39,180 bases of DNA from Patescibacteria group bacterium (lineage in GTDB: Bacteria > Patescibacteriota > Microgenomatia > UBA12405 > JAHJSD01). Shown here in pieces: positions 401 to 37,726 of the stretch (the stretch's first letter is position 1; the number at the start of each line of letters is the position of its first letter). Position numbers and translations under genes: made by a program. The notes beneath the pieces were generated by a model. The model worked only from the letters and a program-made list of their open reading frames with translations, ran no database searches and was not told the origin of the DNA. Location: the NCBI GenBank assembly GCA_018830585.1, contig JAHJSD010000078.1, positions 1 to 39,180 on the forward strand, written 5' to 3'.

Positions 401-715
401 GTTACCCCAGCACCGGTCCCGCAGTTGCGGGGCGGGGTGGAGCGAAGGATCCCTCTGAAAATAGTGATTTGCTTACACAAGGGCCGCGCCCGCCAGACAC
501 CGCCTGCTCGCCATCGCTATGCTCAGGCGTTAGCGGGCGAGAGCCGTCAGGCGATGCGGGCGGGGATCCTTCGTCGTCGGAACTTCCCCGTACCAGAGGG
601 TACAGGGCTTCGCTCAGGATGACGAGGTTGTTCCAAACGGGATCCTTTGTCATCATCCCGACGTTGCGTCGGGGTCAGAATGATGGGTGGGTAGAATTCC
701 CCAGGATGACGAAAG
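401..715. repeat. cluster of GC-rich nested palindromic repeat modules
   Basis: Contains units that recur elsewhere in the window: CCCGACGTTGCGTCGGG (657-673), CCCCGTACC..GGTACAGGG (586-607), and GGGCCGCGCCCGCCA...GCGGGCGGGGATCCTTCGTC (481-575). The three overlapping track ORFs here (402-656-, 425-622+, 469-762+) are Arg/Gly/Pro/Cys-rich repeat translations. Confidence 0.8.
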
Positions 716-1447: not shown

Positions 1448-1480
1448 GGAGGATTATAAATTTATCGATAGATTCTAACA

Positions 1481-1596
1481 ACTGGTTTCAAAACTCTTTA
1501 CGTCATTGCGAGGAGTGTTAACGACGCGGCAATCTAGCTTTAAAAACGAGATCGCCACACTCGCTTCACTCGTTCGCGATGACTTTTGAAACAGGT
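1481..1596. mobile_element. 116-bp foldback MITE-like element, copy 1
   Basis: Terminal inverted repeats GGTTTCAAAA / TTTTGAAAC, and the whole element is an imperfect long palindrome. It differs at 3 positions from the reverse complement of copy 3 (35881-35996). TTCTAA is present on both flanks (1474-1479 and 1597-1602). Confidence 0.8.
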
Positions 1597-1605
1597 TCTA
1601 AATAT

Positions 1606-6453: not shown

Positions 6454-6834
6454 ATGGACAGTAAAAAAGTAATTGATGAATTAAAGAGAAAATATCCGGG
6501 TAAAAAAATTATCAAGAATGGTGAAGATAATCCTTCCGAGATACTTTGTGAGGTTGACCCTTCAACAAATCATCCAGAATACAGCTTGGCGGTAGCGGTG
6601 ATTGACAAAAGCCTTCCCCATTCCCACAAGAAGACAACGGAAACTTATAAAGTTACTAAAGGAAAGCTGGCTTTGTTTATTGACAACAAGAGACATGAGT
6701 TAAAAGAGGGCGAAGAGTTAATCATTAAACCTGGCTGGGTACATTGGGCAAAGGGAAATGAAATATGGGTTGAGTGCTATTCTGAGCCTGGTTGGACTTT
6801 TGAAGACCATATTTTGGAGGAGGTGAGTAATTGA
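6454..6834 (+). CDS. cupin domain protein
   Basis: 126 aa; cupin_2-like core KGKLALFIDNKRHELKEGEELIIKPGWVHWA. The stop overlaps the next start (TGATG at 6832-6836). Confidence 0.65.
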   Translation: MDSKKVIDELKRKYPGKKIIKNGEDNPSEILCEVDPSTNHPEYSLAVAVIDKSLPHSHKKTTETYKVTKGKLALFIDNKRHELKEGEELIIKPGWVHWAKGNEIWVECYSEPGWTFEDHILEEVSN

Positions 6835-7202
6835 TGTTTAATAAACTTTTTGGTAATTGCTTATTGGTAAATGATTTTGAAAAATCTCTAGCTTTCTATC
6901 GTGATGTTTTGGGTTTGACGATAAACAGCCAAGACGGTAAGTTTGCCGATTTCAAGCTAAAAGGGACCTCTTTGGCAATCTTTGAAAAGGAAGCTGCCAT
7001 AGCGATGTTCCCCAAAGAACATATGGGTTCTGGCGGAGGTGTAATCCTAGCCTTCCAAGTAGATAATGTAAATAAAATCTGCGGGGAGCTAAAGGCTAAA
7101 GGTGTAGAGGCGTTTGAGGGACCCAAGACAACCGATTGGGGTCAAACAGTCGCTTATTTCAAAGATCCCGATGGAAACATCTGGGAAATATCCAAGAAAT
7201 AA
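6834..7202 (+). CDS. VOC (glyoxalase/bleomycin-resistance/dioxygenase) family protein
   Basis: FYRDVLGL...FQVDNV...AYFKDPDGNIWEI is the typical VOC beta-alpha-beta-beta-beta signature. The ATG at 6834 is coupled to the upstream stop. Confidence 0.8.
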   Translation: MFNKLFGNCLLVNDFEKSLAFYRDVLGLTINSQDGKFADFKLKGTSLAIFEKEAAIAMFPKEHMGSGGGVILAFQVDNVNKICGELKAKGVEAFEGPKTTDWGQTVAYFKDPDGNIWEISKK

Positions 7203-7205
7203 AAT

Positions 7206-8189
7206 ATGAAGGGGACAATTTTAAGATTAAAAAACCAAGCCGGGTTGATTCTAATTCCTATTGCTCCTTTTTCTTTTGACCCATCAATGCACAAACCAGA
7301 CCATTTTCCTTCTCAAGATACAAAATGGGAGCAAGGAATCCGTTGGCAAACAATGCTTTGGCAAGGAAAACCTTTAGGATTAAAGTTTGAAAATATAGGA
7401 ACAATTGGCAAACCAAAAATTAAGTTGAATGTTTTCTCTGAGGACAAATTAGAGAAGAAATATCTTGAGGGATTAAAAGAGGAGATAAATTATCGCTACG
7501 ATTTTAATACCGATTTAACAGAGTTCAACCAAAAGTTTAGAGATGACAAACAATTAGGTCCAATTATTAAAAAATGGCCAGGGATGAGAATAATGAGTCC
7601 ACAATCTTTATATGAATACTTGGTAATCGGAATTATGCTTCAAAACTGCACTGTTGGCCGTTCTGTCAATATGATGCAGATTTTATTTGAAAAATACGGC
7701 AAGGAAGTGAAATTTGACGGAAATAAATTCTTTTGCTTTTGGGAAGCAAAAATTCTTCTTAGAACAACTGAGGAACAACTTAGAGCTTTGAAAGTTGGTT
7801 ATCGGGCAAAATCGCTTTTAAGAATTACAGAACCCTTTGCAAAAGGCGAAATAAACGAAATTAGCCTAAGAAAGAAAGATGAAGAAGAACAAAGAGAGAC
7901 ATTGATTAGTCTTTACGGAGTTGGGCCGGCAACTGTTGGTTATATTCTTTTTGATGTCTTTAAGCACTATGCTGAATTAAGACACATTTCCCCCTGGGAG
8001 CAAAAGATTTACTCAAAATTGTTTTTCGATAAAGATCCTGAAAACCCCGTCCCTGTTAAAAAACTCTTGAAACATTTTGAAAAGTACGGCAACTATAAGC
8101 AACTTGCCGTCCACTACATCTGGGAAGATTTGTGGTGGAAACGCAAGAATGAACATATTCCTTGGCTGGAGAAGTTAATAAGAGTTTAA
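7206..8189 (+). CDS. HhH-GPD superfamily DNA glycosylase (AlkA/Ogg-like)
   Basis: Helix-hairpin-helix LISLYGVGPATVGYILFDVF with a downstream acidic residue. 327 aa. Confidence 0.7.
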   Translation: MKGTILRLKNQAGLILIPIAPFSFDPSMHKPDHFPSQDTKWEQGIRWQTMLWQGKPLGLKFENIGTIGKPKIKLNVFSEDKLEKKYLEGLKEEINYRYDFNTDLTEFNQKFRDDKQLGPIIKKWPGMRIMSPQSLYEYLVIGIMLQNCTVGRSVNMMQILFEKYGKEVKFDGNKFFCFWEAKILLRTTEEQLRALKVGYRAKSLLRITEPFAKGEINEISLRKKDEEEQRETLISLYGVGPATVGYILFDVFKHYAELRHISPWEQKIYSKLFFDKDPENPVPVKKLLKHFEKYGNYKQLAVHYIWEDLWWKRKNEHIPWLEKLIRV

Positions 8190-8193
8190 TTTT

Positions 8194-8832
8194 ATGAGCA
8201 ATATAATCTATCAGCTTTATCAAGAGCTTTATAAAAAACACGGCGACCCGGTGAAACTTTGGCCTCAGTGGTGTGCCAAAAAGAAGAGTAAGAAATTGAG
8301 AGATTTGATTGCTATCGGAGCTATCTTAACCCAAAGAACTAGCTGGCGAAATGCGGATATAGCCTTAAATAATCTTAAACGAGAGAGTTTGCTTTCACTA
8401 AAGGCGATCGCAGAGCTTAATTCCCCTGATAAGTTAACAGAGCCAATCAGGCCTGCTGGTTTTTATCAAACCAAGCCTAAACGGCTTTTGGGTCTTGCTT
8501 CTTTTGTAATTAAAGAATACGGAGGTTTAGAAAATTTTATGAGAGAGGACTTAAAATCAGCAAGAGAAAAACTGCTTGGTCTTTATGGAGTCGGACCGGA
8601 AACTGCTGATGTTATTCTTCTGTACGCCTTAGATAAACCGAGTTTTGTTATCGATGAATATACAAAGCGACTAGTTGTCAAAAGAAAATTAGCCGAAAAG
8701 CCGGAATACAATTTCCTAAAACAGCTTTTTGAAGAAAGCCTACCCCGGGATGTAAAGATTTATCAGAACTACCATGCCTTAATTATCGTAGAACAAAGAG
8801 GAAAGAAAGCCTCTATAATGAGAGTTGTCTAG
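8194..8832 (+). CDS. endonuclease III-like HhH-GPD protein without a C-terminal Fe-S Cys cluster
   Basis: LLGLYGVGPETADVILLYALDKPSFVIDEYTKRL matches the EndoIII HhH plus the catalytic-Asp region. No Cx6Cx2Cx5C motif at the C-terminus. Confidence 0.7.
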   Translation: MSNIIYQLYQELYKKHGDPVKLWPQWCAKKKSKKLRDLIAIGAILTQRTSWRNADIALNNLKRESLLSLKAIAELNSPDKLTEPIRPAGFYQTKPKRLLGLASFVIKEYGGLENFMREDLKSAREKLLGLYGVGPETADVILLYALDKPSFVIDEYTKRLVVKRKLAEKPEYNFLKQLFEESLPRDVKIYQNYHALIIVEQRGKKASIMRVV

Positions 8833-12346: not shown

Positions 12347-12392
12347 AAACACAAACTTAAATACTTTAAAATTTTTACATTTTTAATATAAA

Positions 12393-12508
12393 CCCGTTTC
12401 AAAAGTGATCGCGAACGAGTGAAACGAGTGTGGCGATCTTGTTTTTAAAGCCAGATTGCCGCGTCGTTAACACTCCTCGCAATGACGTAAAGAGTTTTGA
12501 AACCAGTG
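12393..12508. mobile_element. 116-bp foldback MITE-like element, copy 2 (inverted relative to copy 1)
   Basis: 3 mismatches to copy 3. Lies between the ABC ATPase and permease genes. Confidence 0.8.
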
Positions 12509-12554
12509 GTATGCGTCTTTGATATTTGGTATTTAATTTTTAATTTTAATTATT

Positions 12555-16453: not shown

Positions 16454-16560
16454 AATAATAACATTTTAGCATTTTGATGATTTGATGTCAAGAACCTGTT
16501 GGCAGCTGTTTGTAGCCACGCGTAGTTAGCGCTATATGATTCGTGTTTTATTTCAAGATA

Positions 16561-17387
16561 GTGAAAATCCCGACGTTACGTCGGGAGAGGAATCCCCTCG
16601 CCTCCTGTCATTCTGACCCGCCCAAAGCTACGCAGTTGCTGGCGGGGAAGAATCCCCGTGAAAACAGCAATTTGCTGATCCCAAAGGGGCCGCGCCCGCC
16701 ATCGCTACCCGCCCAGAACTACGTAGCTGTTGGCGGGTTGCGGGCGGGGATTCTTCGTCATCAGAATTCCTCAGAATGACGGTGGAGAGTAAGGGATCGA
16801 GGTTCAAGATGATGGCCAGAGCAGCACAGTCATTCTGAGCGTAGCGAAGAATCCCCATGAAACCAGCAACCTGCTCTAATCCAAGGGGATCCTTCGTCGT
16901 CCCGACGTTACGTCGGGGTTAGGATAATAGGAAGGGGTGAATTTTGACCGCTCATTGATACGATCTTTGAAATGAGCGGTCATTTTAAAGCTTGGAAATT
17001 GGAATTAATTCTAAAAAACAAAACCCCTATTCAACATTGGGAACAAGAGGCCTCTTCTTCCGTCATTCTGAGCGTAGCCCCGTACCGTTCGGTACAGGGC
17101 GAAGCGAAGAATTTTACCCTGTACCCTATGTGGTGCGGGGCCCCTAATTTCCTGGCAACTTGCTTGTCTTGACGGGCCGCGCCCGCCATCGCTACCCGCT
17201 CAGAACTACGTAGCTGTTGGCGGGTTGCGGGCGGGGATCCTTCGTCATTAGAATTCCTCAGGTGCCGGCCGGAGCAGTCTCGTCATTCTGACCCTGAGGC
17301 TTTGTCGAATGGGGAAGAATCCCCTTCCCTCGTCATTCTGACCCCGCAGCGGCGGGGGAAGAATCTATCGAAGCGTAAATTTCGCGA
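16561..17387. repeat. largest cluster of GC-rich nested palindromic repeat modules
   Basis: CCCGACGTTACGTCGGG at 16569-16585 and 16901-16917. An 88-bp direct repeat 16687-16774 / 17174-17261 (3 mismatches). GTCATTCTGA...GAAGAATC units at 16607-16660, 17062-17110 and 17281-17365. 16606-16660 is the reverse complement of about 33051-33105. Confidence 0.85.
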
Positions 17388-17430
17388 TTCACCCCCGGGG
17401 TGTCTGGAGATTTTCACCCGGGGGTGTTGG
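17388..17430. repeat. palindrome-containing repeat, right copy
   Basis: TTCACCCCCGGGGTGTCT..TTCACCCGGGGGTGTTGG, a direct repeat of 15775-15818. Confidence 0.7.
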
Positions 17431-17590
17431 CTTTGGGTAGGGCACAAACTTATTAGTTTTAACAGAAAACATGGGTGTTAGCCTGTGTAGTTTATCAAAA
17501 CCGAAGAACCCCCCTCATACCGGGCAACTTGCCTTTTAAAGAGGGTTTTTTCGGGACTGTTTTCTCGAAGTTTATTTTCGGATAGATTTC

Positions 17591-20192: not shown

Positions 20193-20855
20193 GCTCGTTG
20201 AACATAGAAGGATGATTGGTAGCGGAGATAGTCGGCAGCTTGCTCACTCAGGGGATTGTTCTATCATAGAGGGTCCTTGTTGTTACGACACTCATACTTT
20301 ACCTGGACCACCCAAAAGCTTTCGAGATGCGGTGGGGGTAGCGACAGAAAGATTGAGACAAATGCACCCGACTCTTGTAGCGCCCAGAAGGAGAAGAAGG
20401 TCATCGGGTAACGGATAACCTCCGCTAACGACAATTGGTGTTTGGCAGTGACTGCTTTGAAAGAGTTTAAAAACTTTGAGTTTACCCTTCCGGAACTATT
20501 TTAGTTATCTATCATCTTTGAATTATGGGAAATAGGGTCGGGATTTGCCCGAACCAAAAGGAATCTCTCGGTTGTGATTCTCGAGGCAGTGTTTGTCCGC
20601 GTTTGGTATCTGTACCTGTCTGGGCTGGCCAGGAGGGCAAGAGCGATTGTGTTCGGCTAACAGCGCGTTGTTCTTTGACCAGTGCCGAACTTAGGGCCGG
20701 AATAGATTACTCCGAGGCAAAACTTCCTCCTGTAAAAAGAGATGTAAAACCGTCAATCTTCCCCGGTTGATAAGGTATCTTGTTTTATTTCTATTTTTGA
20801 CGACTTTCTTCGCTGTTTCTTTCATAAAAAGAGTCATTTTTTCTCTTATTTTGGT

Positions 20856-21080
20856 CCGCCTTCGCGAAAATCCCGAAGGGATCCCTTCGGGGCCCGAGGC
20901 TTTTCAAGCCTCGGATGGATAGCGAGCCTGAGTGTAAATGTTGTTTTCGCTTCCACCTTCGCTAAGGCTTCGGTGGACAGGTCGGCGCCTGCCTGCCGGC
21001 AGGCAGGGATTTCAGCTTTTGAACGGAAGAAACGTTTGTCTATCATACGAAGAATCCGAGGCCTGTTAGACCTCGGAGCT
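20856..21080. repeat. GC-rich palindromic repeat modules
   Basis: TCCGCCTTCGCGAAAATCCCGAAGGGATCCC (copy of 9532-9572), CCGAGGCTTTTCAAGCCTCGG, GCCTGCCTGCCGGCAGGCAGG (20988-21008), CCGAGGCCTGTTAGACCTCGG. Confidence 0.75.
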
Positions 21081-22894: not shown

Positions 22895-23503
22895 ATGACT
22901 GGTTTTAAAACCAACATCGAAGAAAAGACAGCGGCTAACGCCAATTTCCGGCAAGTTTTATTTACCGGCAAGTATAGTCAATTAGTAGTAATGAGCCTTC
23001 GGCCGGGTGAAGAAATTGGTCTGGAGGTTCACGATATTGTGGATCAATTTTTCCGGTTTGAAAAAGGCCAGGGTAAAGTAATCATTGACGGAGAGGAGTT
23101 TGTCGTTGCCGACGGCGACGCGGTAGTGGTTCCTGCCGGATCAAGGCATAATGTGATCAATACCTCGCTGGTGGAAGACCTTAAGCTTTACACTCTTTAT
23201 AGCCCGCCCAACCATCCGGACGGGACAATTCAGGCTACTTTAGAAGAGGCAATGGCGGCCGAAGAGGTGGAACACGATCAGATTGGCGCTCCGGTTGCTC
23301 CGGAAGAACCGCCGGCAATGATTCCTTCCGCGCCTGCCCCGGCGGAAGCTCCGGTATTGGCACCGGTTCCGGACACTGCTCCGGAAATAGTTCCGGAACC
23401 TATGCCGGAACCCGTCTCGAATCCTGCTTTGGAAGCAGTTGCTGATCCTATTTCAACAGCCGATTCCGGGCTGGAATCGGATCCCGCTGGAGATATAGAA
23501 TAA
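22895..23503 (+). CDS. cupin domain protein with a Pro/Ala/Glu-rich C-terminal tail
   Basis: SD AAAGGAGGA upstream. Cupin core GEEIGLEVHD...GDAVVVPAGSRHNVIN. The last ~75 aa are PAPE-rich low complexity. Confidence 0.8.
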   Translation: MTGFKTNIEEKTAANANFRQVLFTGKYSQLVVMSLRPGEEIGLEVHDIVDQFFRFEKGQGKVIIDGEEFVVADGDAVVVPAGSRHNVINTSLVEDLKLYTLYSPPNHPDGTIQATLEEAMAAEEVEHDQIGAPVAPEEPPAMIPSAPAPAEAPVLAPVPDTAPEIVPEPMPEPVSNPALEAVADPISTADSGLESDPAGDIE

Positions 23504-23506
23504 ACT

Positions 23507-23536
23507 ACACACGGGCTAAAGCCCGTGTGTTCTGTT
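23507..23536 (+). terminator. hairpin ACACACGGGC-TAAA-GCCCGTGTGT
   Basis: Perfect 10-bp stem 3 nt after the cupin stop, with a weak T tract (TCTGTT). Related copies at 17470-17492 (inverted) and 28886-28905. Confidence 0.5.
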
Positions 23537-23552
23537 AAAACTGATAAGTTTA

Positions 23553-23645
23553 CGGCTTCGCCCCGTACCGTCTGGTACGGGGTTTCGCTGGATTCTTCGC
23601 TCCGCTCAGAATGACGGGGAAAGGAGGTTTCTCTTTTAACGTAAC
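23553..23645. repeat. GC-rich palindromic repeat modules
   Basis: CCCCGTACCGTCTGGTACGGGG (23561-23582) followed by GATTCTTCGCTCCGCTCAGAATGAC. Confidence 0.7.
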
Positions 23646-23697
23646 ATCGGGGTTTTCGCTTTCCCGGAATAAGTTGGAGTTTTAACGCGGTAACCGG

Positions 23698-24084
23698 TTA
23701 ACCGGTGTAGCGGGCTCTGTTTATTTGCCAGGGCTTTCTTTGGACAATTTTTTCGTCTATACGGGTAGTAGCCCTTCCGCCGATCGTTACTCCCCGTAAG
23801 GGCTGGCGAGGATTGGTTGGCACTATTCCCAAAAAAAACCCAGGCTTTTTTACCACAACTACTTTTGCTCCAATTCTGATTTGACGGAAAGTTGGGCCGA
23901 TACTTGTCATAATTTCCAAACCAAAACTCCCTCTCGGCACCGCCAGTCTTTGGTGGTGTGGAAGAACCAGCCCGTTTCTCGGAAACCGGAGTCCGTCAGC
24001 GCTGTTGACATATTCATTTCTCCGTCCGCCGGTTGTTTCAATTGCTATCCAATGGTTAAGCCCGGCCCGCAGTCTTAGTCTCAT
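23698..24084 (-). CDS. orphan Arg-rich 128-aa ORF (doubtful; may be non-coding RNA)
   Basis: Track ORF. On its strand a consensus TATAAT (plus coordinates 24096-24101) lies 11 nt before the ATG, with no SD. Composition is Arg/Gly/Pro-rich and GC-richer than typical genes here. No motif recognised. Confidence 0.25.
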   Translation of the reverse strand: MRLRLRAGLNHWIAIETTGGRRNEYVNSADGLRFPRNGLVLPHHQRLAVPRGSFGLEIMTSIGPTFRQIRIGAKVVVVKKPGFFLGIVPTNPRQPLRGVTIGGRATTRIDEKIVQRKPWQINRARYTG

Positions 24085-24149
24085 GGTATCATGGTATTAT
24101 AGTATATACTATATATATTAAGTGGCTTTGAAAGGATAATATTTCCCTC

Positions 24150-24262
24150 TATCTTTTCCACAGACGCTGGTTTTCGAAAATATCGTGAGGATGATGGGGA
24201 GTAATTAATTTTTTCGGGTTTTCACCTAAAATTTCGATTTTATCTTTCGGATAAAGCAATCC
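24150..24262 (-). pseudogene. orphan 3' fragment of a DUF362 gene (last ~36 codons plus stop)
   Basis: 24154-24258 is 97/105 identical, ungapped, to 28911-29015. The minus-strand frame reads LLYPKDKIEILGENPKKLITPHHPHDIFENQRLWKR-stop, against SLYPKDKIEILGENPKKLTTPYRPHDTFENQRLWKK-stop in the intact gene. Confidence 0.85.
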
Positions 24263-24363
24263 TGAGCTTGCTGTGTCCTTCCATAGCCATAGGAGCTTCA
24301 ATTTACCCTAATTGTTCGATAAAAACTTGACAAAAACACTCCCATATTATAGGATCAGTCAAG

Positions 24364-27300
24364 ATGTTAAAAGATCAGGACTCTTCAGGTCCAAGAGCGC
24401 TGACGGTGTGTTCTCGCTGGTCAGTAGTTCCATCTGCTGATTCAGCAACTTTCTCCCCCGAGGGTCAGGTAAAACAGTTGTTGGCTCGGGTAAAAGACCG
24501 TTTGGATAGAGGGGGGTCTGCCCGGAGAGGAACGACAGGGCCGTCTGGTCAGATTAGAACTATTGTAACGAGCAAACATCCTGGACCAAAAAGACTTGTT
24601 TGGCTTCCTGGCCCTCTTTCTGGATCAGCCGGGTCGTTAATTAAACCAGCCATGCTTCTTTCCGGGCCTTTAGAGGCGGTCAGATTACCGATTGAATCAC
24701 CAACAGGAGTTGGTAAGAGAAACACAGTAGCAGTCAGCGGACCGGTGAACCCAGTAGAAATGACAAGGGTGTTTCGTTCCTCAATAGGAACAGTAGAAAC
24801 AATTCAGTCTGAAAAGGCCGGCGATAGACAAAAAGGGCCAACAGGAATTTTGTCTGAACTGTTGGGAACAAGAAGGGGCGAAAAGAACGCGGGAGGAGAA
24901 GTAAAAGCTCCGACGCCGAAAACCAAATCAAGACAGACCAGGACAACAGAAAGAAGACCGCAAACAGTTTCTTTAACACATCAGCCAGCTCCTCTTTCAG
25001 AGACTCTTTTTGGAGGGTTATCTGATCTGCCAAGAATGTTATCTCTCGATCCTGTTTCAGTTAGCCCTGTTCCCAGTCCCAGTAAGGATTGTCCGATTTC
25101 ACCCAGAGCCGCTTCGGAAGGGTTAGTCAGAGTTGAGCAACCAGAAATAATCAGACCAAGAAGAGCAGTAAAAGGAGTAAGAGGGCAATCTTCTGGAAAC
25201 GGAAACAAAAGGGTAGAAGGAAAACCTGTTAGTTTAGTTCTGTCCCAATCATCAGGAGAACAACCAGGACAAAGAGCTGTTGCCCCGGTTGAACAAGTAA
25301 GACTTTTTAGACAACAAGTCGGGCCAACTATCACTATCCCGGAAAAACCAGAACTCTTTTTACGGGTGGTACAGAAAGCACAGGGAGAACAGAAAAAACC
25401 AGGTCTTTTGCGGAGAGTATCAGAGATAGCTGACCGAGTTTTAAATCCAGATTTCCGGTCAGAAGATACGCGGGAAGCTATGGCAAGAAGGAGAGGGGGA
25501 GCGTCTGTTGTTAATAGGCGGGGTTTTATAAGAAGAATAGGGACTGCTGTTGGAGCGGCAATGCTTGCCGCTTGCGTTCCGAAAACAGAAAAAGTGATAG
25601 GAAACCAACCACTATCAACAGCTGTTCCAGCAGGAACTCCCCGGTCGGTAGAAACTCCCCGGCCAATAGGAACACCTAAAGTTGATGTAAGAAATGATAT
25701 CCCTGTTGTGGTTGAAAAAACAGAAGCGGCGAGAAAACCTGTTACCCCTGTGCAGGTAGAGAAGACGGCAATTCCTACATCCACTCCAGCGAATCCGGAA
25801 ACTGACAAACCGCCTACCCACCAAGAACGCGTAAGTAGAGTGATAGACTTGATGTTAGATAGTGGTGAAGCAAAGCGAGTTCCAATATCAGAACTGAAAA
25901 AAATGGGGGCGGGTGTTGAAAGAAGAGAGCCGGATTTGCCTGAAAAATTAAGGCAAGCCAATAGCTTTTTGGGGAATTTTGGTATTCATTTAGAGTCAAC
26001 CCATTGGGATTTGCTGAATTTGGTTGAGCAAAGATACCAGGAATGGTTAGACGACCCCCGTTCCTTGAAAATTGATCCGACAAAAGAAGAAATAGACGCG
26101 CTTTGTCAGCAAGTTGCCGGAGAAACCGGTCTTCCATCGGAGGCTTTTGACGAACTGCTCCACCTTATCGGTTGGCGGGAGAGCGGTCTTAGGGGTAAAA
26201 AAGCAAAAGACGGCCACGGCGATATTTTTCGGGATGTGCTTGACGGTATTACTAACCCTTTTGTTTATGCCGCTATAGATTCGAACGAGGATGGCCTAAT
26301 TTCTCCTGATGAAGAACGTTACTGGGCTGTTTTTTTACCCAAAAGAGAAACCTCTCTTCCGCTCAAAGAACTTGATGAAAATTACCAGAGAGTGGCCGCG
26401 TTTAAGGTTTCTCGAGTGGATCCAAAAACAGGCCGGGAAGATGCACGGCTTCTAGGAGAAAGAATTTTGCCGGTACCAGGAAGTTTCATTGTCAACGATG
26501 CCCGCGCAAACCTCCTTTTTGGTATGGCCATCGCTCTTGACAGCATCATTCGTATTGCCGCAGATATGAATAATAACGAGGGGTCCTACAAGCAGGTTTA
26601 TGATTACCTTTTACGCGAACAACCTGAGTATCTTTTTGATAGATTTACAAAAGGTCAAAGAGAAAGCCTGAAAGCAGGAGGGAAAAGCTTATTAGATGGT
26701 CGATCATTATTTTTTGCTATGGTTTTTGCTAACTTTCATTACGGCCGAAGACAATTTGAAAGAAATATTCTTTATGGAAGCAGTGCTCGTCAGGTTTTAA
26801 GCTTGCCTGGTGATAATTTCAACAAAAGGTCGTGGTTTAAGGGCGTGACGGCGGAGACCAGCTGGGGCGATGCTCTTAAATTGGCAGTCTGGTCTTTAGC
26901 TGATCCTCAGTGGAAGCAGGCTCGCTATATTGGCCCCGGTTATTTACCGGGAACAAAAGACGATCGGTTTTATTATAATGTTGGCCCGGAAAAGCGGGAA
27001 AGACTGTCTAGAATAGCTGAAGGAAGGGTAGAATTAGCTGATCTTGAGGATGGTGAAACTCCTTTTTGGTTTTGGCAAGAAAATGCGGATCTTTTCTACC
27101 AATATCTGTTTAGAAATACTGATTCGTCAGAACCAGCCTTAGCAAAAAGGATCGCGGCAAGTAAAAGTTTTTTTAGAGAGGTTTTTAGGGAAAGTATCGT
27201 TCTCAAGCAAGATTCTTTACATTTCCCTTGGTACGGCATGGGTTCTGTCGAAAGAAGACTGTCTGTTTTTGATCAGTCAATTGGTATTATTTTGGACGGT

Positions 27301-28800
27301 CTGCAGACAGTTCCAAAAACAGACCAGGAAAGGAAATTATATATCAACGCTCTTTTCGGTTTTTCCAAAAACGCTGAAATCAGCTCTGCTGGTTTAGATA
27401 CCGATTTGGCGGTAGCCCGTTTTGATCAGGTTTACCACAAACTGGGTCAATTACAGGAACTTCATTCAACAATCCCTTCTGATCTGGTAAAGGCCGTAAG
27501 GTCTGGAAAGATACTTGACCTTGACAATTTGGTTTTGGGTTCGAAAGAAGGGTCTTTGGGAAGGATAAAGTTGGCGGAAAAATACGCAGAGATTGTTTTT
27601 AAAGGAAGAGACTTGGAATACCAACGCTTGCTTATAGAAAGAATTAAAAGTTTTGTCAGAGAGACAGGAGAAACTTATTTTAGGGACTTGGATCCGTCTG
27701 AAAAGGCGCTTTTGACATCTATGGCTCAAAATTATTTTCATTGGGATCGAAATACTTCACTTTTTAACTCGCCGGTTGAAAACGGTGTTAACGTGGTGGC
27801 TAACGGACTGATGTATCGTCTTTATGATGATCTCTTTTCTGTAACAGGCGAAAATTTTCACTCTGCTAAAATTACTGAAACTGTTTTGGCTCGGTTTTCT
27901 CGCGGCAGAAAAATTTTGGCAGAAATGACCGCTTTGGCAGAAACAAAAGTAGCAATAGAAAAAATGAGCAGTGGTCTAAATGGAGATCAGTTGCTTCGGT
28001 TTTTTCCTCCTGTCAGCTTTGAAATCTCGGCGGATTTTGAACTTGACCAACTTGCCGCTATGGTGGTGACAAAAGAAAGAGTCTCTATTAAAGATGTGGC
28101 TGATGATAAAAAAGATCAGGAAGGAAGTAGAGTGATGCTTTTACACCGCTCTTTAGCCGCTTTGCAGGTACTTTCCAGCTTGGAGAAAAAATTTCCGGAT
28201 CGAAAACTTTTTTTTGAAGAAGCAAGAAGAGAAATCTTGGAACAGGCAGTTCTTTTAACAGATATTGATTATCATTTCCCGCTCCATCTGGGAGGGAGTA
28301 GTATTTTTAACAAAAGGCACTTTTATTCTCCCAGGGGTGACTATCACAGGATTTCTGACAGATTATTTTTTTGGACTCACCCTTTATTAATCCCCGCTTA
28401 TTTGGCTGATCAACCGCCTAAACATTTTGATATAGAAACTGCCTGGCGAATTTGTGAAAAATACCAGAGCTATGCTGATGGGTCAGTTTATGCAGGTTTT
28501 TGGGAAAAGCATGAGGATTTGGTCAACGAATCTTTCAATGCAATGCTTTTAGATTCTGACAAGTTCCCGCAGGCTATGACTCCTCGTATTAGGAGGGAAG
28601 AGGAGAAAGTAATAAGGAGCCTAAAAGGAGGACAAGACCTTGACGTTTCTGAAGGAGACTATCTCCTTTTAAAAGTATATTATCTCCTTTATAAAATGAG
28701 ACTGAATCCATACGATGATAGTCATTTATCTAGGTTTGCCCTTTGGTTCAGAAAGAAGAGAATTAGTAGGGGTTGGGGAAGGGAAAGCCTGACCCGATAA
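24364..28800 (+). CDS. 1478-aa ORFan: low-complexity N-terminal region, internal Tat-like/lipobox hydrophobic segment, ~1070-aa C-terminal domain of unknown function
   Basis: Uninterrupted 4.4-kb frame. N-terminal internal repeat PVEMTRVFRSSIGTVETI / PVEQVRLFRQQVGPTITI is conserved at protein level but not DNA level. NRRGFIRRIGTAVGAAMLAAC at residues ~383-403. No catalytic motif recognised in the C-terminal part. Confidence 0.75.
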   Translation: MLKDQDSSGPRALTVCSRWSVVPSADSATFSPEGQVKQLLARVKDRLDRGGSARRGTTGPSGQIRTIVTSKHPGPKRLVWLPGPLSGSAGSLIKPAMLLSGPLEAVRLPIESPTGVGKRNTVAVSGPVNPVEMTRVFRSSIGTVETIQSEKAGDRQKGPTGILSELLGTRRGEKNAGGEVKAPTPKTKSRQTRTTERRPQTVSLTHQPAPLSETLFGGLSDLPRMLSLDPVSVSPVPSPSKDCPISPRAASEGLVRVEQPEIIRPRRAVKGVRGQSSGNGNKRVEGKPVSLVLSQSSGEQPGQRAVAPVEQVRLFRQQVGPTITIPEKPELFLRVVQKAQGEQKKPGLLRRVSEIADRVLNPDFRSEDTREAMARRRGGASVVNRRGFIRRIGTAVGAAMLAACVPKTEKVIGNQPLSTAVPAGTPRSVETPRPIGTPKVDVRNDIPVVVEKTEAARKPVTPVQVEKTAIPTSTPANPETDKPPTHQERVSRVIDLMLDSGEAKRVPISELKKMGAGVERREPDLPEKLRQANSFLGNFGIHLESTHWDLLNLVEQRYQEWLDDPRSLKIDPTKEEIDALCQQVAGETGLPSEAFDELLHLIGWRESGLRGKKAKDGHGDIFRDVLDGITNPFVYAAIDSNEDGLISPDEERYWAVFLPKRETSLPLKELDENYQRVAAFKVSRVDPKTGREDARLLGERILPVPGSFIVNDARANLLFGMAIALDSIIRIAADMNNNEGSYKQVYDYLLREQPEYLFDRFTKGQRESLKAGGKSLLDGRSLFFAMVFANFHYGRRQFERNILYGSSARQVLSLPGDNFNKRSWFKGVTAETSWGDALKLAVWSLADPQWKQARYIGPGYLPGTKDDRFYYNVGPEKRERLSRIAEGRVELADLEDGETPFWFWQENADLFYQYLFRNTDSSEPALAKRIAASKSFFREVFRESIVLKQDSLHFPWYGMGSVERRLSVFDQSIGIILDGLQTVPKTDQERKLYINALFGFSKNAEISSAGLDTDLAVARFDQVYHKLGQLQELHSTIPSDLVKAVRSGKILDLDNLVLGSKEGSLGRIKLAEKYAEIVFKGRDLEYQRLLIERIKSFVRETGETYFRDLDPSEKALLTSMAQNYFHWDRNTSLFNSPVENGVNVVANGLMYRLYDDLFSVTGENFHSAKITETVLARFSRGRKILAEMTALAETKVAIEKMSSGLNGDQLLRFFPPVSFEISADFELDQLAAMVVTKERVSIKDVADDKKDQEGSRVMLLHRSLAALQVLSSLEKKFPDRKLFFEEARREILEQAVLLTDIDYHFPLHLGGSSIFNKRHFYSPRGDYHRISDRLFFWTHPLLIPAYLADQPPKHFDIETAWRICEKYQSYADGSVYAGFWEKHEDLVNESFNAMLLDSDKFPQAMTPRIRREEEKVIRSLKGGQDLDVSEGDYLLLKVYYLLYKMRLNPYDDSHLSRFALWFRKKRISRGWGRESLTR

Positions 28801-28906
28801 AGTCCTACCAATTTCCACCAACTCGGAGGTGGTTTGTTGACACTTCGGTAGTAACTCGTTTCCGGTACCCTACCTGTTTCACTTCGGGCATAAGCCCGTG
28901 TGTATT

Positions 28907-29791
28907 TCACTTTTTCCACAGACGCTGGTTTTCGAAAGTATCGTGAGGACGGTAGGGGGTAGTTAATTTTTTCGGGTTTTCACCTAAAATTTCAATTTTA
29001 TCTTTCGGATAAAGCGAGCCTAAACCTTCTTTTTTGATCAGGTTCAGATAGCCGATATCCTCGATTTTAAACCCCATCAGGTAGGAGGCCAGAGAGTCGG
29101 CGGCAAGAGGATCCAAAGAGGCAATTGCCCAACCGGAGTTGATTGGGGTGCCGTTACAGGGACCGTTTCCTTGCATACCGATAGTACCATCAATAATTGC
29201 CAGATTGGGAAAGGTGTGTTTGGCGATTTCGGCCAAAATCCAATGGATGTTTTTGCCTTGATGAACCTTTCCCCGGTTGCCGAAAAGTTTTTGTTGGATT
29301 GCCCCCATCAAAAGGTTTTTAATTGCCAGAGTTGTTACCACTGCATCGTGAGTTTTCGCTCGGCAGATAGAAACAATAAAAGGCGATTGAGTATAAATTT
29401 TTGCCAGAGGGAGGATTACTTTGCCATTGGGATATTTTATGGTCACTTTTTCGGTAAGACTTTTGGCGGAATCCAATAATTTAACTTGCGGATTTTTAGC
29501 CAATTCTAAAAAACCAAACCGGTTGAAACCTCCGTCGCTGTTGCCTAAAGTAGCCTCTTCAGCGATGATAATTTCGCCTTGATGAAACTTCTCAATTGAG
29601 TAGACGAATGCTTTTACCGCTTCGAACGGAGTGGCGGATAGTTCCGTATAAGTGGAAACGAAATTAACTTTTACCACTATCCGGTCAACTTTTGCCAATT
29701 TCTCTTTCAAATTTGGCATAATTGCTTTCAGAGCTCTTTGGACTCCGGAATAAGAGCTTAGACTTTTGGCCAAAGATACTTGAGACGGCAT
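28907..29791 (-). CDS. DUF362 domain-containing protein
   Basis: 294 aa. VKVNFVS, ICRAKTHDAVVTTLAIKNLLMG and IIDGTIGMQGNGP match the DUF362 pattern as I recall it. Confidence 0.8.
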   Translation of the reverse strand: MPSQVSLAKSLSSYSGVQRALKAIMPNLKEKLAKVDRIVVKVNFVSTYTELSATPFEAVKAFVYSIEKFHQGEIIIAEEATLGNSDGGFNRFGFLELAKNPQVKLLDSAKSLTEKVTIKYPNGKVILPLAKIYTQSPFIVSICRAKTHDAVVTTLAIKNLLMGAIQQKLFGNRGKVHQGKNIHWILAEIAKHTFPNLAIIDGTIGMQGNGPCNGTPINSGWAIASLDPLAADSLASYLMGFKIEDIGYLNLIKKEGLGSLYPKDKIEILGENPKKLTTPYRPHDTFENQRLWKK

Positions 29792-29898
29792 AGTTGAGAA
29801 CTACTATAACATATCATTCCTAAAACCCGCCTTCCCCGGTGATCTAACTCTTGGACTATTGCCAAAGGACAGCTTTTTGGGGTTTAATAAAGGTAATT

Positions 29899-32466
29899 AT
29901 GGTTAACCCGGCTTCCTGGAGCAGACCGACAGAACTTCTCTTGAAAGAGCTTGGTACTTCCGCCGACGGTCTGAAGAAGATCGAGGCTAAAAAACGGCTG
30001 GAAAAAGACGGTTTGAACGAGATCAGACAAGAATCTTCGCGTCCGGTTTTAAGGATTTTATGGTTACAGCTTCAAAACTGGCTGATAATAATCCTCTTTT
30101 TAGCCGCGGCAGTTTCTTATTTTTTGGGTGAACATCTTGAGGGAGGGGTAATCACCAGCCTGGTGCTTTTAAGCGTGTTTTTTGGTTTTTTCCAGGAATA
30201 TCGCGCCGAAAAGGCTTTGGAGAAGTTAAGAAAATATATCAGCCACAAGATAAGAGTAAAAAGAGACGGCCAGTGGCAGACTTTGGAAAACAAAGAATTG
30301 GTCGTGGGAGATTTGGTGGAATTAAGGATCGGGGATATTGTCCCGGCCGATATCCGACTGATTTCTTTGGACGGATTGGCCGTTAACGAATCGGTTTTAA
30401 CCGGCGAATCCGAGCCGGTGGTCAAGGATCTGAAAACCGTCAGCAAAAAGCGCAGCCAGCCTCAAGACTTAAAAAATATGGTTTTTATGGGAACTTCGGT
30501 TTCTTTAGGCTTGGCAACCGGGGTGGTGACGGCGGTGGCTAAAGACACTTTTTTTGGAAAAACAGCCAAGCTCTTGTCTGCTATCCCCAGAGAGACCGAT
30601 TTTCAAAAACAGATAAAAAATTTCGGCTCTTTTCTTTTCAAGGTTACTGTGATTATGACCACCTTCGTATTTTTGGCCAACGCTTTTTTGGAAAAAGGAA
30701 TCTTCGAATCGCTCCTTTTTGCTGTTGCCTTGGCGGTAGGAATTGCTCCGGAGATGCTGCCGGCGGTAATTACGGTAACTTTGTCTCAAGGCGCTTTAAA
30801 AATGGCCCGCCAAAAAGTAATCGTCAAAAGGTTAGCTTCCGTTGAGGATCTGGGAAATGTAGACACTTTGTGTACCGATAAGACGGGCACGTTGACCGAA
30901 GGCAAATTTTCTCTTGCCGGTTTTAAAAACGTTAACGGTGATGATTTGGATCAGGAGTCGCTCAGGTTAGCCTTGCTTTGTACCGGTGGTTTTAACCATC
31001 AGCGTAAAGTGGTTCCGACTAATGCCACCGACAAAGCTCTTTGGGAAAGTGGAATAGCCGGAAAACTTAAAAAAAGCTTGGCAAGCTATCGGGTTTTAGA
31101 TGAAAACGAATTTGATTTTGAGCGGAAGCGGATGAGTGTTTTGGTCGCTAAAAAGGAGCGGTCTGAAAATTATTGCTTGGTTGTCAAGGGAGCTCCGGAA
31201 TCTGTTTTGGCGGCAGTTTCCGAAGTTATAGTTAAGGGCGAATCAGTTTTGATCAAAAAACAGAAAAGAGAGGAAATTGCAAAACAGTTGGCCGGCTATG
31301 AAAGTTTGGGTTACCGGGTGATTGCTTTGGCTCGGAAAAAAATGAAAGAGGCCGATTCTGTGATCAAAGACGAGAACAATCTTACTCTTTTAGGGTTTTT
31401 GCTTTTCAGTGATCCGGTTAAGGCTTCGGCGGCCAAGTCTTTGGAATTATTCCAAAAGTTAGGGGTAAAAATTAAAATTATCAGCGGCGACAGCATCGGT
31501 ATAACCAAGAGCATTGCCGTCAAAGTCGGCTTGATCGGCCAGACGGAAAAAATAATCAGCGGAGAAGACTTAGCCCGGCTTCATGATAGGGATTTTGATC
31601 AATGCGTGAATCAATGCCGTGTTTTTGCCAGGGTTACTCCGGAGCAGAAGTATAAGATTGTTGCTTCATTGAACCGGGAAGGACATATCGTCGGTTTTTT
31701 GGGTGACGGAATCAATGATGCTCCGGCTTTAAAGGCGGCTGATGTAGGTATTGCCGTTGATACCGGGGCGGCGATTTCTAAAGAAGCGGCGGATATTATT
31801 TTGTTGAAAAAAGATCTGCAGATTTTAGCCGAAGGAATTGGAGCGGGGAGAAAAACGTTCGGCAATATTATGAAATATATTTTAAATACCATCAGCGCCA
31901 ATTACGGCAATATGTTTACCGTCTCCGCCTCATCTCTATTTTTAAAATTTATCCCGCTTTTGCCTTCGCAGATACTTTTAAACAACTTTATCAGTGATAT
32001 CCCTCTTTTGGCAATTGCTACCGACAATGTTGATGGTGAATTTGTTAAAAAACCGAAACGGTGGAATATCCGGCTGATCGGGATGTTCATGCTTTACTTC
32101 GGCCTGATCAGTTCGTTTTTTGATTTTGTTTTGATTTTGTTTTTGCTTCTTTTTTGGAAGGTCGGCCCCGGTGTTTTCAGGACAGCTTGGTTTATTGAGT
32201 CCTCGCTTTCGGAAATAATGGTTACTTTTTCGATCCGGACCAAGTTGCTGTTCTTCCGAAGCAAACCGAGCCGATGGCTGATCGTTCTTAGTTTCTTTTC
32301 CAGCTTGCTGGTGGTTTTAATGCCTTTTCTGGCTTTCGGCAGAGAGGTTTTTGAGTTCAGTCTTTTGCCGGTATCGGTTTGGATTTGGATTGCTTTGGTA
32401 GTGGTCTCTTATTTCATCGTTACCGAAATGGTTAAACATAAATTTTTCGCTAAGTTTGAGTTTTAG
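29899..32466 (+). CDS. mgtA: magnesium-importing P-type ATPase (MgtA-like)
   Basis: TGES, DKTGTLT, GDGINDAPALK, and the MgtA-type TM segment QILLNNFISDIPLLAIATDNVDGEFVKKPKRW. The track start 29851 is a TTG; ATG 29899 (MVNPASW) is preferred. Confidence 0.85.
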   Translation: MVNPASWSRPTELLLKELGTSADGLKKIEAKKRLEKDGLNEIRQESSRPVLRILWLQLQNWLIIILFLAAAVSYFLGEHLEGGVITSLVLLSVFFGFFQEYRAEKALEKLRKYISHKIRVKRDGQWQTLENKELVVGDLVELRIGDIVPADIRLISLDGLAVNESVLTGESEPVVKDLKTVSKKRSQPQDLKNMVFMGTSVSLGLATGVVTAVAKDTFFGKTAKLLSAIPRETDFQKQIKNFGSFLFKVTVIMTTFVFLANAFLEKGIFESLLFAVALAVGIAPEMLPAVITVTLSQGALKMARQKVIVKRLASVEDLGNVDTLCTDKTGTLTEGKFSLAGFKNVNGDDLDQESLRLALLCTGGFNHQRKVVPTNATDKALWESGIAGKLKKSLASYRVLDENEFDFERKRMSVLVAKKERSENYCLVVKGAPESVLAAVSEVIVKGESVLIKKQKREEIAKQLAGYESLGYRVIALARKKMKEADSVIKDENNLTLLGFLLFSDPVKASAAKSLELFQKLGVKIKIISGDSIGITKSIAVKVGLIGQTEKIISGEDLARLHDRDFDQCVNQCRVFARVTPEQKYKIVASLNREGHIVGFLGDGINDAPALKAADVGIAVDTGAAISKEAADIILLKKDLQILAEGIGAGRKTFGNIMKYILNTISANYGNMFTVSASSLFLKFIPLLPSQILLNNFISDIPLLAIATDNVDGEFVKKPKRWNIRLIGMFMLYFGLISSFFDFVLILFLLLFWKVGPGVFRTAWFIESSLSEIMVTFSIRTKLLFFRSKPSRWLIVLSFFSSLLVVLMPFLAFGREVFEFSLLPVSVWIWIALVVVSYFIVTEMVKHKFFAKFEF

Positions 32467-33160
32467 TCCGTCGAAAGCGAAAATCCCGAAGGGATCCCTT
32501 TGGGATTCTAAGGCCCCTGTATCCTTCTGTAGCCCTGCCGGCAGGCAGGGATTCCTGTCTCGTAAGGCTTGCTCAGAGTGATAGAAGGGAAATAGGCGCT
32601 GGCGCTGGATTCCTCTTTCTGCCGGAGGCAGAAATTCGGAATGACGGAAGAAGGAGGCGCTTCGCTGCCTGTCTTGTCCACCACGGGCGGGCCTGCCTGC
32701 TCGCCTCGCTGAGCGGTCGAAGCGGGCCGGTAGGCGTAACCAGCCCTCGGCTTTCCCACTGCAGTGGAGTCGCTCAGAATGGCTTTCTTGACTCGTCATC
32801 CTGAGTGTAGCGAAGGATCCCCTTTTCGATGGCAAGTTGTCGAAGATTAGGGGCCTCGTACCACCACAGGGTACAGGGAAAATTCTTCTCCCGACGTAAC
32901 GTCTGGGCGATGACGAAGGACCCCTCTCTGGAACAACCTCGTCATCCTGAGGAATTCTGATGACGAAGAATCCCCGCCCGCATCGCCTGACGGCTTCAGC
33001 GTCTGGCGGGCGCGGCCCTTGTCTAAGCAAGTTGCTGGTATATGAGGGGGGGATTCTTCCCCGCCAGCAACTGCGTAGCTTTGGGCGGGTCAGAATGACG
33101 GGAAACGAGAGGATTCTTCGAGATTAGAATAACAAGAGAGTCCGCCTTCGCTTTGACCTT
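32467..33160. repeat. cluster of GC-rich nested palindromic repeat modules (partly the inverted counterpart of 401-715 and 16561-17387)
   Basis: Module copy of 9532-9572 at 32467-32507. CTGCCGGCAGGCAGG at 32535-32549. 32890-32952 is the reverse complement of about 613-673. 32962-33018 is the inverted GGGCCGCGCCCGCCA...CTTCGTC unit. 33051-33105 is the inverse of 16606-16660. Track ORFs 32317-33030-, 32508-32759- and 33023-33247- are repeat translations. Confidence 0.85.
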
Positions 33161-35704: not shown

Positions 35705-35880
35705 TCGGTTTTAATGATGGAAATAGACCTTTTTCAATTGCCTCTGTTTTTAATTCTCTGAGTAGCGCCAGACCCCGCTTTCTTTGCCTCCTTGCTTCCG
35801 GGGTTTTAAGTATCCGGCCGTCCGGCCCGGTACCGATCATAGACACTCTTAAGGCATTTAAAGCTGAAGCTCTGGTTGAA

Positions 35881-35996
35881 CCTGTTTCAAAAGTGATCGC
35901 GAACGAGTGAAGCGAGTGTGGCGATCTTGTTTTTAAAGATAGATTGCCGCGTCGTTAACACTCCTCGCAATGACGTAAAGAGTTTTGAAACCAGTT
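35881..35996. mobile_element. 116-bp foldback MITE-like element, copy 3
   Basis: Between the convergent Clp-like and mltG genes. 3 mismatches to each of the other two copies. Confidence 0.8.
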
Positions 35997-36019
35997 GGTT
36001 TTAAAATCGTTTTCGCCAG

Positions 36020-37099: not shown

Positions 37100-37726
37100 T
37101 TAATTAGGTAATGTCTTTTTTTGGGGAATAAGACTAATTAGTTTTCCCTGAATAGAAAAATTTTCCAAGATCGGTTTATATTTCGGGTTGGCCGGAAAAA
37201 GCATCGCTCTTCCTTCGACAATTCTGAACCTTTTTAAAGTTACCCCGTTTTCATACAGGGCGGCGATGATTTCTCCGTCATTGGCTACCGGTTGGGGGGC
37301 GATGATAGCGATATCACCGCTGTTGATCCCGGCTCCGATCATGCTGTCCCCGGAGACTTCAACGGCAAAAACATTTTTCAGCCCCCGGCTTTGGAGTAGT
37401 GAGATTTTGATGTATTTGTCTACGTGATCTTCGGCAAAAAAAGCAGTCCCGGCAGGAATACTGCTGGACATCAACGGAACGGAGAAATACCCCTGGTCAG
37501 GTTGGAGTAAAGAAGGGTCTATTCTGATGTTTCTGGCCCCTTTTTTCCTCGAAAGAAGACCGGCTTCTTCCAATTTTTCAAGCTGGAGAGTGACTCCTCT
37601 AAGCGATTTAATCTGGCATCGATCCCTGATTTCTCTAATTGTTGGAGAGAATCCTAAAGTCTTAATTTGGCCGATGATGATTTCCAAGACCCTTTTTTGT
37701 TTTTCGGTCAGTTTTTGATAATCCAT
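37100..37726 (-). CDS. lexA: LexA repressor
   Basis: N-terminal winged helix LTEKQKRVLEIIIGQIKTLGFSPTIREI. C-terminal S24 peptidase VSGDSMIGAGINSGDIAII with a downstream Lys (LKRF). Confidence 0.9.
   Translation of the reverse strand: MDYQKLTEKQKRVLEIIIGQIKTLGFSPTIREIRDRCQIKSLRGVTLQLEKLEEAGLLSRKKGARNIRIDPSLLQPDQGYFSVPLMSSSIPAGTAFFAEDHVDKYIKISLLQSRGLKNVFAVEVSGDSMIGAGINSGDIAIIAPQPVANDGEIIAALYENGVTLKRFRIVEGRAMLFPANPKYKPILENFSIQGKLISLIPQKKTLPN

Follow-up and report, generated by a model that had tools for sequence, protein, structure and literature searches.

The 39,180-nt stretch of DNA analysed here (the window; contig JAHJSD010000078.1 of assembly GCA_018830585.1, from a Patescibacteria group bacterium) carries, between a cupin gene and a DUF362 gene, a lineage-specific block with one large open reading frame (ORF), and the last codons of the DUF362 gene occur a second time, as an orphan fragment, on the far side of that ORF. 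A preliminary description of the locus had read the two tails as what remains when an element integrates into the 3' end of a gene and brings a surrogate tail, in the manner of the attachment sites attL and attR, and had offered as an alternative that the body of a second DUF362 paralogue was overwritten. Our analysis points toward the alternative. With about even confidence, we regard the orphan tail as a dead fragment, left by a second DUF362 copy, that lies at the margin of an old and fixed block, and not as the attachment (att) site of a self-mobile element; as part of the same account, the resident DUF362 gene and its ancestral terminator flank would never have been interrupted. The features that matter most for this account are as follows.

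22895-23503, plus strand: cupin gene (Pfam Cupin_2), the conserved left anchor of the spacer, with nucleotide identity of 82% to a sister species (L005) and 74% to a second lineage (L009)
23504-28842: the whole lineage-specific block, ~5.3 kb, absent from the sister and from L009
24149-24272, minus strand: T_L, the orphan DUF362 3' fragment, comprising the last ~37 codons and a TAG at 24149-24151; core 24154-24258, with homology fading over 24259-24272
25480-28800, plus strand: conserved cargo protein, 1106 aa from M373 of the long ORF
28843-28906, minus strand: flank D, native downstream sequence of the DUF362 gene by alignment with the sister, with a terminator-like hairpin at 28885-28905
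28907-29030, minus strand: T_R, the genuine DUF362 tail and right arm of the repeat
28907-29791, minus strand: intact DUF362 gene, 294 aa (Pfam PF04015, E 4e-31), with syntenic orthologues at 77% and 73% identity

The two tails form a repeat pair far beyond chance (BLAST E-values 2e-38 to 2e-40). Positions 24154-24258 and 28912-29016 align without gaps at an offset of 4758, with 97 of 105 positions identical and identical runs of 26, 31 and 21 nt, and a repeat search gives a longer pair, of 119 nt at 89% identity (24154-24272 with 28912-29030). The preliminary description had the left arm and the count of identities right, whereas its right arm (28911-29015) and offset (4757) were off by one; at an offset of 4757 only 44 of the 105 positions agree. 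It also placed the TGA of the intact gene correctly at 28907-28909, but the stop of the left copy lies at 24149-24151, not at 24150-24152. The amino acid differences that it listed between the products (T>I, Y>H, R>H, T>I and K>R) are correct, and a further one, S>L, lies at the inner edge of the repeat. A larger tandem duplication, which would have made the repeat unrelated to the ORF, is ruled out by the extent of the duplicated stretch, only 105-119 nt. We compared the window with two further assemblies, L001 (NCBI GCA_043820715.1) and L002 (ENA ERZ27247117), both of which encode the exact DUF362 protein and match the window at 99.73% and 99.95% nucleotide identity, respectively, so that the strains differ by 0.05-0.27% overall. 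In both, the structure is identical to that of the window and both junctions are spanned, with 7-44 positions differing; thus, both junctions were assembled independently.

In the DUF362 frame, T_L reads ...GLLYPKDKIEILGENPKKLITPHHPHDIFENQRLWKR* and ends in a TAG equivalent to the TGA of the intact gene. A tblastn search with DUF362 residues 258-294 detects it at E 2e-16, and the DUF362 family hidden Markov model (HMM; 76 sequences) matches the tail only, at E 6e-13. Upstream of ~24262, no DUF362 body was found by tblastn or by the family HMM on all frames, and the upstream translation scores below zero; because both searches are silent there, the body was either wholly removed or never present. 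A decayed DUF362 body beneath the 5' region of the long ORF was rejected on the same grounds. Homology between the two copies stops at the stop codon, and the T_L flank beyond it is unrelated and AT-rich, with 9 of 60 positions identical to the flank of the right copy and 17 of 60 to that of the sister. Across the three strains, the 105 nt of T_L hold two polymorphisms (24196 and 24214), both at first codon positions and amino-acid-changing, and the entire DUF362 gene holds none. These numbers are small (two against zero), and they indicate that T_L is now under relaxed constraint and evolving freely. The left copy can thus be described, as it was at first, as an orphan tail with an in-frame stop at the equivalent position; it is non-functional, and no body remains.

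The flank of the right copy carries the most weight in choosing among models. Over 58-63 nt, D is collinear with the downstream flank of the sister DUF362 gene (72% identical), beginning ~6 nt past the stop codon and lying at an equal distance from it in both. It contains the terminator-like hairpin noted previously at 28886-28905, which we confirm at 28885-28905. The core of this hairpin recurs in the window, and the 31-nt part of D beyond it is unique there. Since D is both shared with the sister and unique, it is ancestral, and it adjoins the gene-attached copy. Models in which DNA inserted into the tail predict D to the left of the orphan copy; site-specific integration, Campbell-type integration and staggered-cut duplication therefore do not fit unless the incoming DNA bore D and the recipient lost its own.

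The relationships of the tails place the duplication in time. Each tail matches the sister tail at 84 of 105 positions and the L009 tail at ~68-70 of 105, compared with 97 of 105 between T_L and T_R. Because the tails are closer to each other than to the sister, the duplication postdates the sister split and neither tail is foreign, which answers in the negative the earlier question of whether the left copy is foreign. When the eight core differences are polarised using the sister tail, four are derived in T_R (24258, 24236, 24204 and 24200; two of them amino-acid-changing, L>S and I>T) and four in T_L (24196, 24194, 24192 and 24180). This even balance suggests that both copies spent time within genes. 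The event itself is old, given that the tails are 7.6% diverged and the strains no more than 0.27%.

Related loci support the view that something was gained here. Of the DUF362 relatives, P0003 (77% identity) and P0004 (73%) come closest, and the P0003 contigs keep the synteny of the window (radical SAM, LexA, YceG, ClpB-like, ATPase and DUF362 genes). In the sister species (L005), the ATPase gene is followed by DUF362, by a spacer of 784 bp filled with repeats and then by cupin; there is a single tail and no large gene. This is the empty site that the preliminary description had proposed seeking, a one-tail cupin/DUF362 neighbourhood lacking the segment, and comparison with it supports the segment being an insertion relative to the nearest available relative. 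In sensitive blastn, alignment of the sister and L009 spacers breaks off after 23489 on the left side and resumes only at 28843 on the right side, which sets the limits of the block; the block has the same GC content as the window (43.8%) and is fixed in three of three assemblies. No second tail was found in L003-L014, and L003-L009 have one tail each. More distant DUF362 genes (~60% identity) do not share the synteny and have no orphan tails; upstream of one of them, on a 113-kb Joint Genome Institute (JGI) contig, lies a region of ~5 kb without a called gene (L013 2981-8001). A DUF362 scan of genome contigs returned no relatives, and a scan of metagenome contigs with P0003 returned just the two JGI sister contigs already known together with distant DUF362 genes.

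The contents of the spacer differ from one lineage to the next. In L005, the stretch at 4206-4695 is made of the sister's own short dispersed repeats. L008 equals L005 less ~430 nt that are flanked in L005 by two 60-nt direct repeats (92% identical), a contrast best read as repeat-mediated deletion or duplication at this same site. L007 diverges after ~460 nt and encodes a secreted-looking protein of 358 aa with no Pfam match on record (L007 2081-3157), and in L009, of the 73% lineage, a 48-aa ORF, a sortase and a DcrB-like gene lie between DUF362 and cupin (6742-8386). Since one lineage holds repeats only, others a secreted-looking protein or a sortase and a DcrB-like gene, and L008 a deletion, the spacer between these convergent genes is a fast-evolving hotspot that holds different DNA in each lineage.

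The gene that the block carries in the window is accompanied by the following features.

24327-24355, plus strand: promoter-like TTGACA-17-TAGGAT, matching 10 of 12 positions and the best site in 23400-29900, as a consensus match only
24364-25479, plus strand: 372 codons that extend the long ORF in frame on its 5' side and are rich in S, G, P and R; a disordered N-terminal domain or a 5' region
28815-28838, plus strand: predicted terminator-like hairpin of the cargo gene's own, with a T-rich run

The TTGACA hexamer reported earlier as -35-like (24327-24332) is borne out as part of this promoter-like site. The accompanying label of ORFan overstates the case. When residues 488-1478 of the long ORF are searched exhaustively with HMMER, P0115 (E 2.7e-79), P0116 (E 4.4e-47) and seven weak relatives (P0117-P0123) are found, among which P0115, of 1094 aa, is 31% identical to the cargo over ~850 residues. 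A word-indexed protein search with the whole 1478-aa ORF gave itself alone among the matches listed, and an exact-protein look-up of the 1478-aa product found no record. All homologues except P0116 and P0121 start with an RRxF[LIV] twin-arginine (Tat) signal, and P0118 passes Pfam TAT_signal PF10518. Their RR motif aligns to residues 383-404 of the long ORF (nt 25510-25575), NRRGFIRRIGTAVGAAMLAAC, ending in a lipobox-like LAAC; this stretch (NRRGFIRR...AMLAAC) is N-terminal only if translation starts at 25480, and TIGR01409 matches the window protein at E 0.057, below its cutoff. The alignment of the homologues' signal at residues 383-404 leads us to place the conserved protein at 25480-28800. 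From these features, the cargo is possibly a Tat-signal protein, perhaps a lipoprotein, of a rare family, with a helical domain following the signal. Relative to the unnamed family of P0115-P0123, the window ORF is longer by 372 in-frame codons on its 5' side, and P0115 and P0117 lack its LAAC lipobox.

Whether the 372-codon extension is translated can be argued from both sides. It contains no stops, compared with 25 and 17 in the other forward frames, and its codon score is weak. No homologue covers it. It has 13 strain differences, of which three are at third positions, and the conserved part has two, both at third positions. Because P0116 also has a long extension ahead of its RR motif, the extension may be real. 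A 326-aa antisense ORF in the low-complexity 5' part (24981-25961, minus strand) is probably a composition artefact and overlaps the homology-supported sense region of signal and linker. For the cargo as a whole, no domain or fold match was found in Pfam, PHROG, PADLOC or the PDB, and nothing useful came from NCBIfam; the AlphaFold2 model is poor (mean predicted local distance difference test score, pLDDT, 52), and Foldseek gave no match in the PDB at E <= 0.001. The neighbourhoods of P0115 and P0116 are unrelated to the window, being not near DUF362 and without tail repeats. A 37-nt terminator-like repeat flanks P0116 (L011), and we judge it to be a shared terminator hairpin.

The left part of the block, between the cupin gene and T_L, contains no convincing gene.

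23507-23673: repetitive extragenic palindromic (REP)-like repeats just past the cupin stop, of families recurring in the window
23674-24148: unique sequence (X) separating the REP-like repeats from T_L, without similarity to related loci
23698-24084, minus strand: doubtful 128-aa ORF in X, frameshifted in L001 (A deleted at 23831)
24098-24113: perfect 16-nt palindrome TATAGTATATACTATA after tandem CATGGTAT CATGGTAT, in the AT-rich gap between the 128-aa ORF and the T_L stop

We rejected the 128-aa ORF as a gene on account of the frameshift in L001, a neutral codon score and the lack of any homologue among 5.8 billion proteins. Neither this ORF nor X matched Pfam, NCBIfam, PHROG or phage DNA, and Rfam was empty even at E <= 1. 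The palindrome has one weak second match in the window. The same hairpin core stands directly after the cupin stop (23507-23530) and after the DUF362 stop (28885-28905). REP-like families cluster between genes throughout the window (440-690, 16550-17490, 20850-20890, 23507-23673 and 32460-33120), with CCCGACGTTACGTCGGG and ACACGGGCTAAAGCCCGTGTGT as examples. A separate intergenic repeat of ~118 nt occurs in three copies of 95-98% identity (12391-12510 and 35878-35997, plus strand; 1479-1598, minus strand); the sequence, whose termini are inverted (GTTTCAAAAGT...AGTTTTGAAAC), folds as a long hairpin (-45 kcal/mol, z -5.2), has no Rfam match and looks like a miniature inverted-repeat transposable element.

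The wider setting is that of a chromosome. By inference from its gene content, the window would be chromosomal DNA of a member of the Patescibacteria (Candidate Phyla Radiation, CPR): named DUF362 homologues are annotated as Shapirobacteria, Pacebacteria or Patescibacteria, and the neighbouring genes are of chromosomal type, including a two-component system, a MacB-type ABC exporter, a P-type ATPase, a ClpB-like ATPase, YceG, LexA and a radical SAM protein. Relative to L001, 42 of 43 substitutions are transitions, and the differences are bunched in tracts of ~110-150 nt (window 24769-24917, 35749-35857 and 37424-37563); those in lexA lie mostly at multiples-of-3 spacing. From their clustering, these tracts look like recombination imports between strains.

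As the preliminary description had it, no mobilising function is in evidence. Domain searches of the long ORF and the 128-aa ORF (Pfam, NCBIfam and PHROGs) and of 35 other ORFs across the 39 kb (Pfam), which did not extend to short antisense ORFs inside the segment, returned no integrase or transposase, and the window contains no detectable tRNA or Rfam family. The block ends share no terminal inverted repeats or palindrome other than the common REP-like hairpin core, no presence/absence polymorphism of the block was seen among the three assemblies, and no tail duplications were found near other DUF362 genes or cargo homologues. Together with the position of the sister-like flank D, which adjoins the gene-attached copy and not the orphan, and the shared lineage of the two tails, this speaks against reading the left copy as a surrogate tail at an att site.

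How, then, might the arrangement have arisen? In the explanation we prefer, the second DUF362 copy would have been a paralogue or the allele of a close relative, ~8% diverged, which either came in together with the cargo DNA or was severed by that DNA near codon 257. The succession of D, tail and body would be the inherited arrangement, and the left tail a stump beside DNA that either introduced the cargo gene or acquired it afterwards. The spacer would then hold a block of ~5.3 kb with one credible gene and that gene's own promoter-like and terminator-like sites. Remnant status is favoured because D is ancestral on the right, the tails are of the same lineage, their derived changes are balanced, homology ends at the stop codon and T_L is under relaxed constraint. 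It is also favoured because there is no signal of a body, no recombinase domain, tRNA or terminal inverted repeat, and because the block is fixed, of native GC content and located in a hotspot spacer. We infer the sequence in which these events took place and the former existence of a body in the second copy. The alternative offered in the preliminary description, a second paralogue that lost its body, thus fits better than the att model, but the loss would have been a clean truncation and not a gradual decay.

Several observations weigh against this explanation. It needs at least two events. No DUF362 proteins between 77% and 100% identity were found in 5.8 billion protein clusters, leaving the postulated second copy or its donor unobserved, and no relative with two DUF362 copies was found. 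Within this genome, the searches for recombinases and for tail copies covered the 39-kb window, and the rest of the genome, with any recombinase acting in trans, lies outside it. The derived sites within the tails are spatially separate, those of T_R spanning 24200-24258 and those of T_L 24180-24196, a pattern that looks like the product of a reciprocal crossover and would favour integration inside the tail. By our own combinatorial estimate, which is not the output of a tool, segregation of this kind would arise by chance with a probability of 2/70, or of 2/35 when 24196, which varies in the window strain alone, is left out (p ~0.03-0.06).

Integration by recombination inside the DUF362 tail, of a circle carrying a second tail with its own downstream flank (D'-tail') and the cargo gene, is the explanation that this last pattern would serve, and we consider it possible if rather doubtful. 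It could have proceeded by a recombinase acting in trans, as in the e14/icd case, or by a RecA-dependent single crossover of the Campbell type, and in either variant it leaves reciprocal hybrid tails; X would be the native flank of the recipient, and D would have come on the circle. It accounts for the geometry, since 3'-end direct repeats bracket a self-contained cassette of promoter, gene and terminator and the sister species has an empty site. A crossover between 24196 and 24200 would place the four T_R changes on the body side and the four T_L changes on the stop side as observed; it could have found its core in the identical runs (26, 31 and 21 nt), and short-repeat recombination is evident in the sister's spacer (L008 compared with L005). 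However, D must then have been on the incoming DNA and the recipient's own D lost, even though the sister has D in the same position. The mosaic would further require that one parental haplotype took ~7 changes while the other took none, in itself an unlikely distribution. Neither an integrase nor an excisionase was found in the segment or in the rest of the 39 kb, the three strains show no presence or absence of the block, any such event must be old given the 7.6% divergence of the tails, and the cargo homologues reside away from DUF362 and without such repeats.

An improbable course is local partial duplication during the insertion, in which template switching or gap repair at a double-strand break placed a copy of the gene's final ~120 nt on the far side of the incoming DNA, no second gene ever having existed. 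In its favour, just 105-119 nt are doubled, with sharp breaks on both sides, and both tails are of one lineage. Yet the copied piece begins at the stop codon and omits D, which would be strange for repair that takes no account of coding, and no microhomology or repair signature was found at the junctions. The balance of derived changes, with two amino acid changes on the functional copy, suggests a longer separate history.

We give still less credence to the block being a minimal cassette without a recombinase, one that entered the DUF362 3' end within the last 37 codons by means of a host or trans-acting recombinase or RecA and brought a replacement tail and terminator. The sole positive hint is the segregation of derived sites, and the evidence leans against such recombinase-independent exchange; if it were true, Patescibacteria would have a way of exchanging single genes with one another that leaves reciprocal hybrid tails behind. 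Finally, a chimeric or collapsed metagenome contig, raised at the outset as something that would undo the observation and conceivable insofar as the source is metagenomic and repeats can mislead assemblers, has a negligible chance of being the cause, since three same-species assemblies of different sources cross both junctions with one structure and 7-44 differing positions, and arms that mismatch at 8 of 105 positions would not collapse.

The finding is thus a real but ordinary relic of rearrangement, new just as an instance. Its main value is as a correction: att-like geometry is no sign of a mobile element here, and a large apparent ORFan belongs to a rare Tat-signal family. More modestly, it captures a CPR genome gaining the gene of a surface or secreted protein in a hypervariable spacer, with a datable gene remnant left behind. 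The remaining mechanistic role of the tails would be as 105-nt direct repeats, recombination of the RecA type across which could delete the cargo.

Comparison with known systems helps to define what kind of relic this is. Integrative elements that occupy the 3' end of a gene encode a tyrosine or serine integrase, usually beside one att site. The closest example is the e14 element of Escherichia coli, whose insertion in icd was reportedly described by Hill, Gray and Brody in 1989 as the icd-icdC case. As there, the 3' end of a gene is present twice, in direct orientation, around an insert, the orphan copy is a C-terminal pseudogene with few substitutions, and recombination between the copies would delete the insert (PMC13626634). 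In icd-icdC, the orphan copy lies beside host DNA and the gene runs into element DNA (PMC13626634), whereas here the gene-attached copy keeps the ancestral flank D. Moreover, e14 is a cryptic prophage with its own site-specific recombination functions that excises on SOS induction; the insert described here is a single gene, and no recombinase was found. The locus therefore shares with systems of the e14/icd type the direct repeats derived from a 3' end and the one-tail empty site in relatives, but it shows neither an encoded integrase nor a native flank on the orphan side nor evidence of mobility.

Campbell-type single crossover of a circle with an internal gene fragment produces repeats of the shared fragment, requires RecA only and is reversible. 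The direct repeats that bracket the inserted DNA here are of this form. In such an insertion-duplication, the repeats should be reciprocal hybrids, with which the four-and-four segregation of derived sites would agree, but all of the DNA between the repeats should be incoming, and here 58-63 nt of it match the chromosomal flank of the sister. Transposons and insertion sequences are a poorer comparison, as the block has no transposase, terminal inverted repeats or short target-site duplication; to our knowledge, a 105-nt repeat with eight mismatches is far beyond the sizes known for target-site duplications. Viewed as a truncated pseudogene, T_L has the expected homology to its parent family and relaxed constraint, and lacks a trace of the body or a second copy in relatives. 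The locus also resembles gene remnants at the borders of strain- or species-specific islets, with which it shares conserved anchors, content that varies by lineage and an edge fragment under relaxed constraint; it differs from them in that the remnant copies the neighbouring intact gene and ends exactly at its stop codon.

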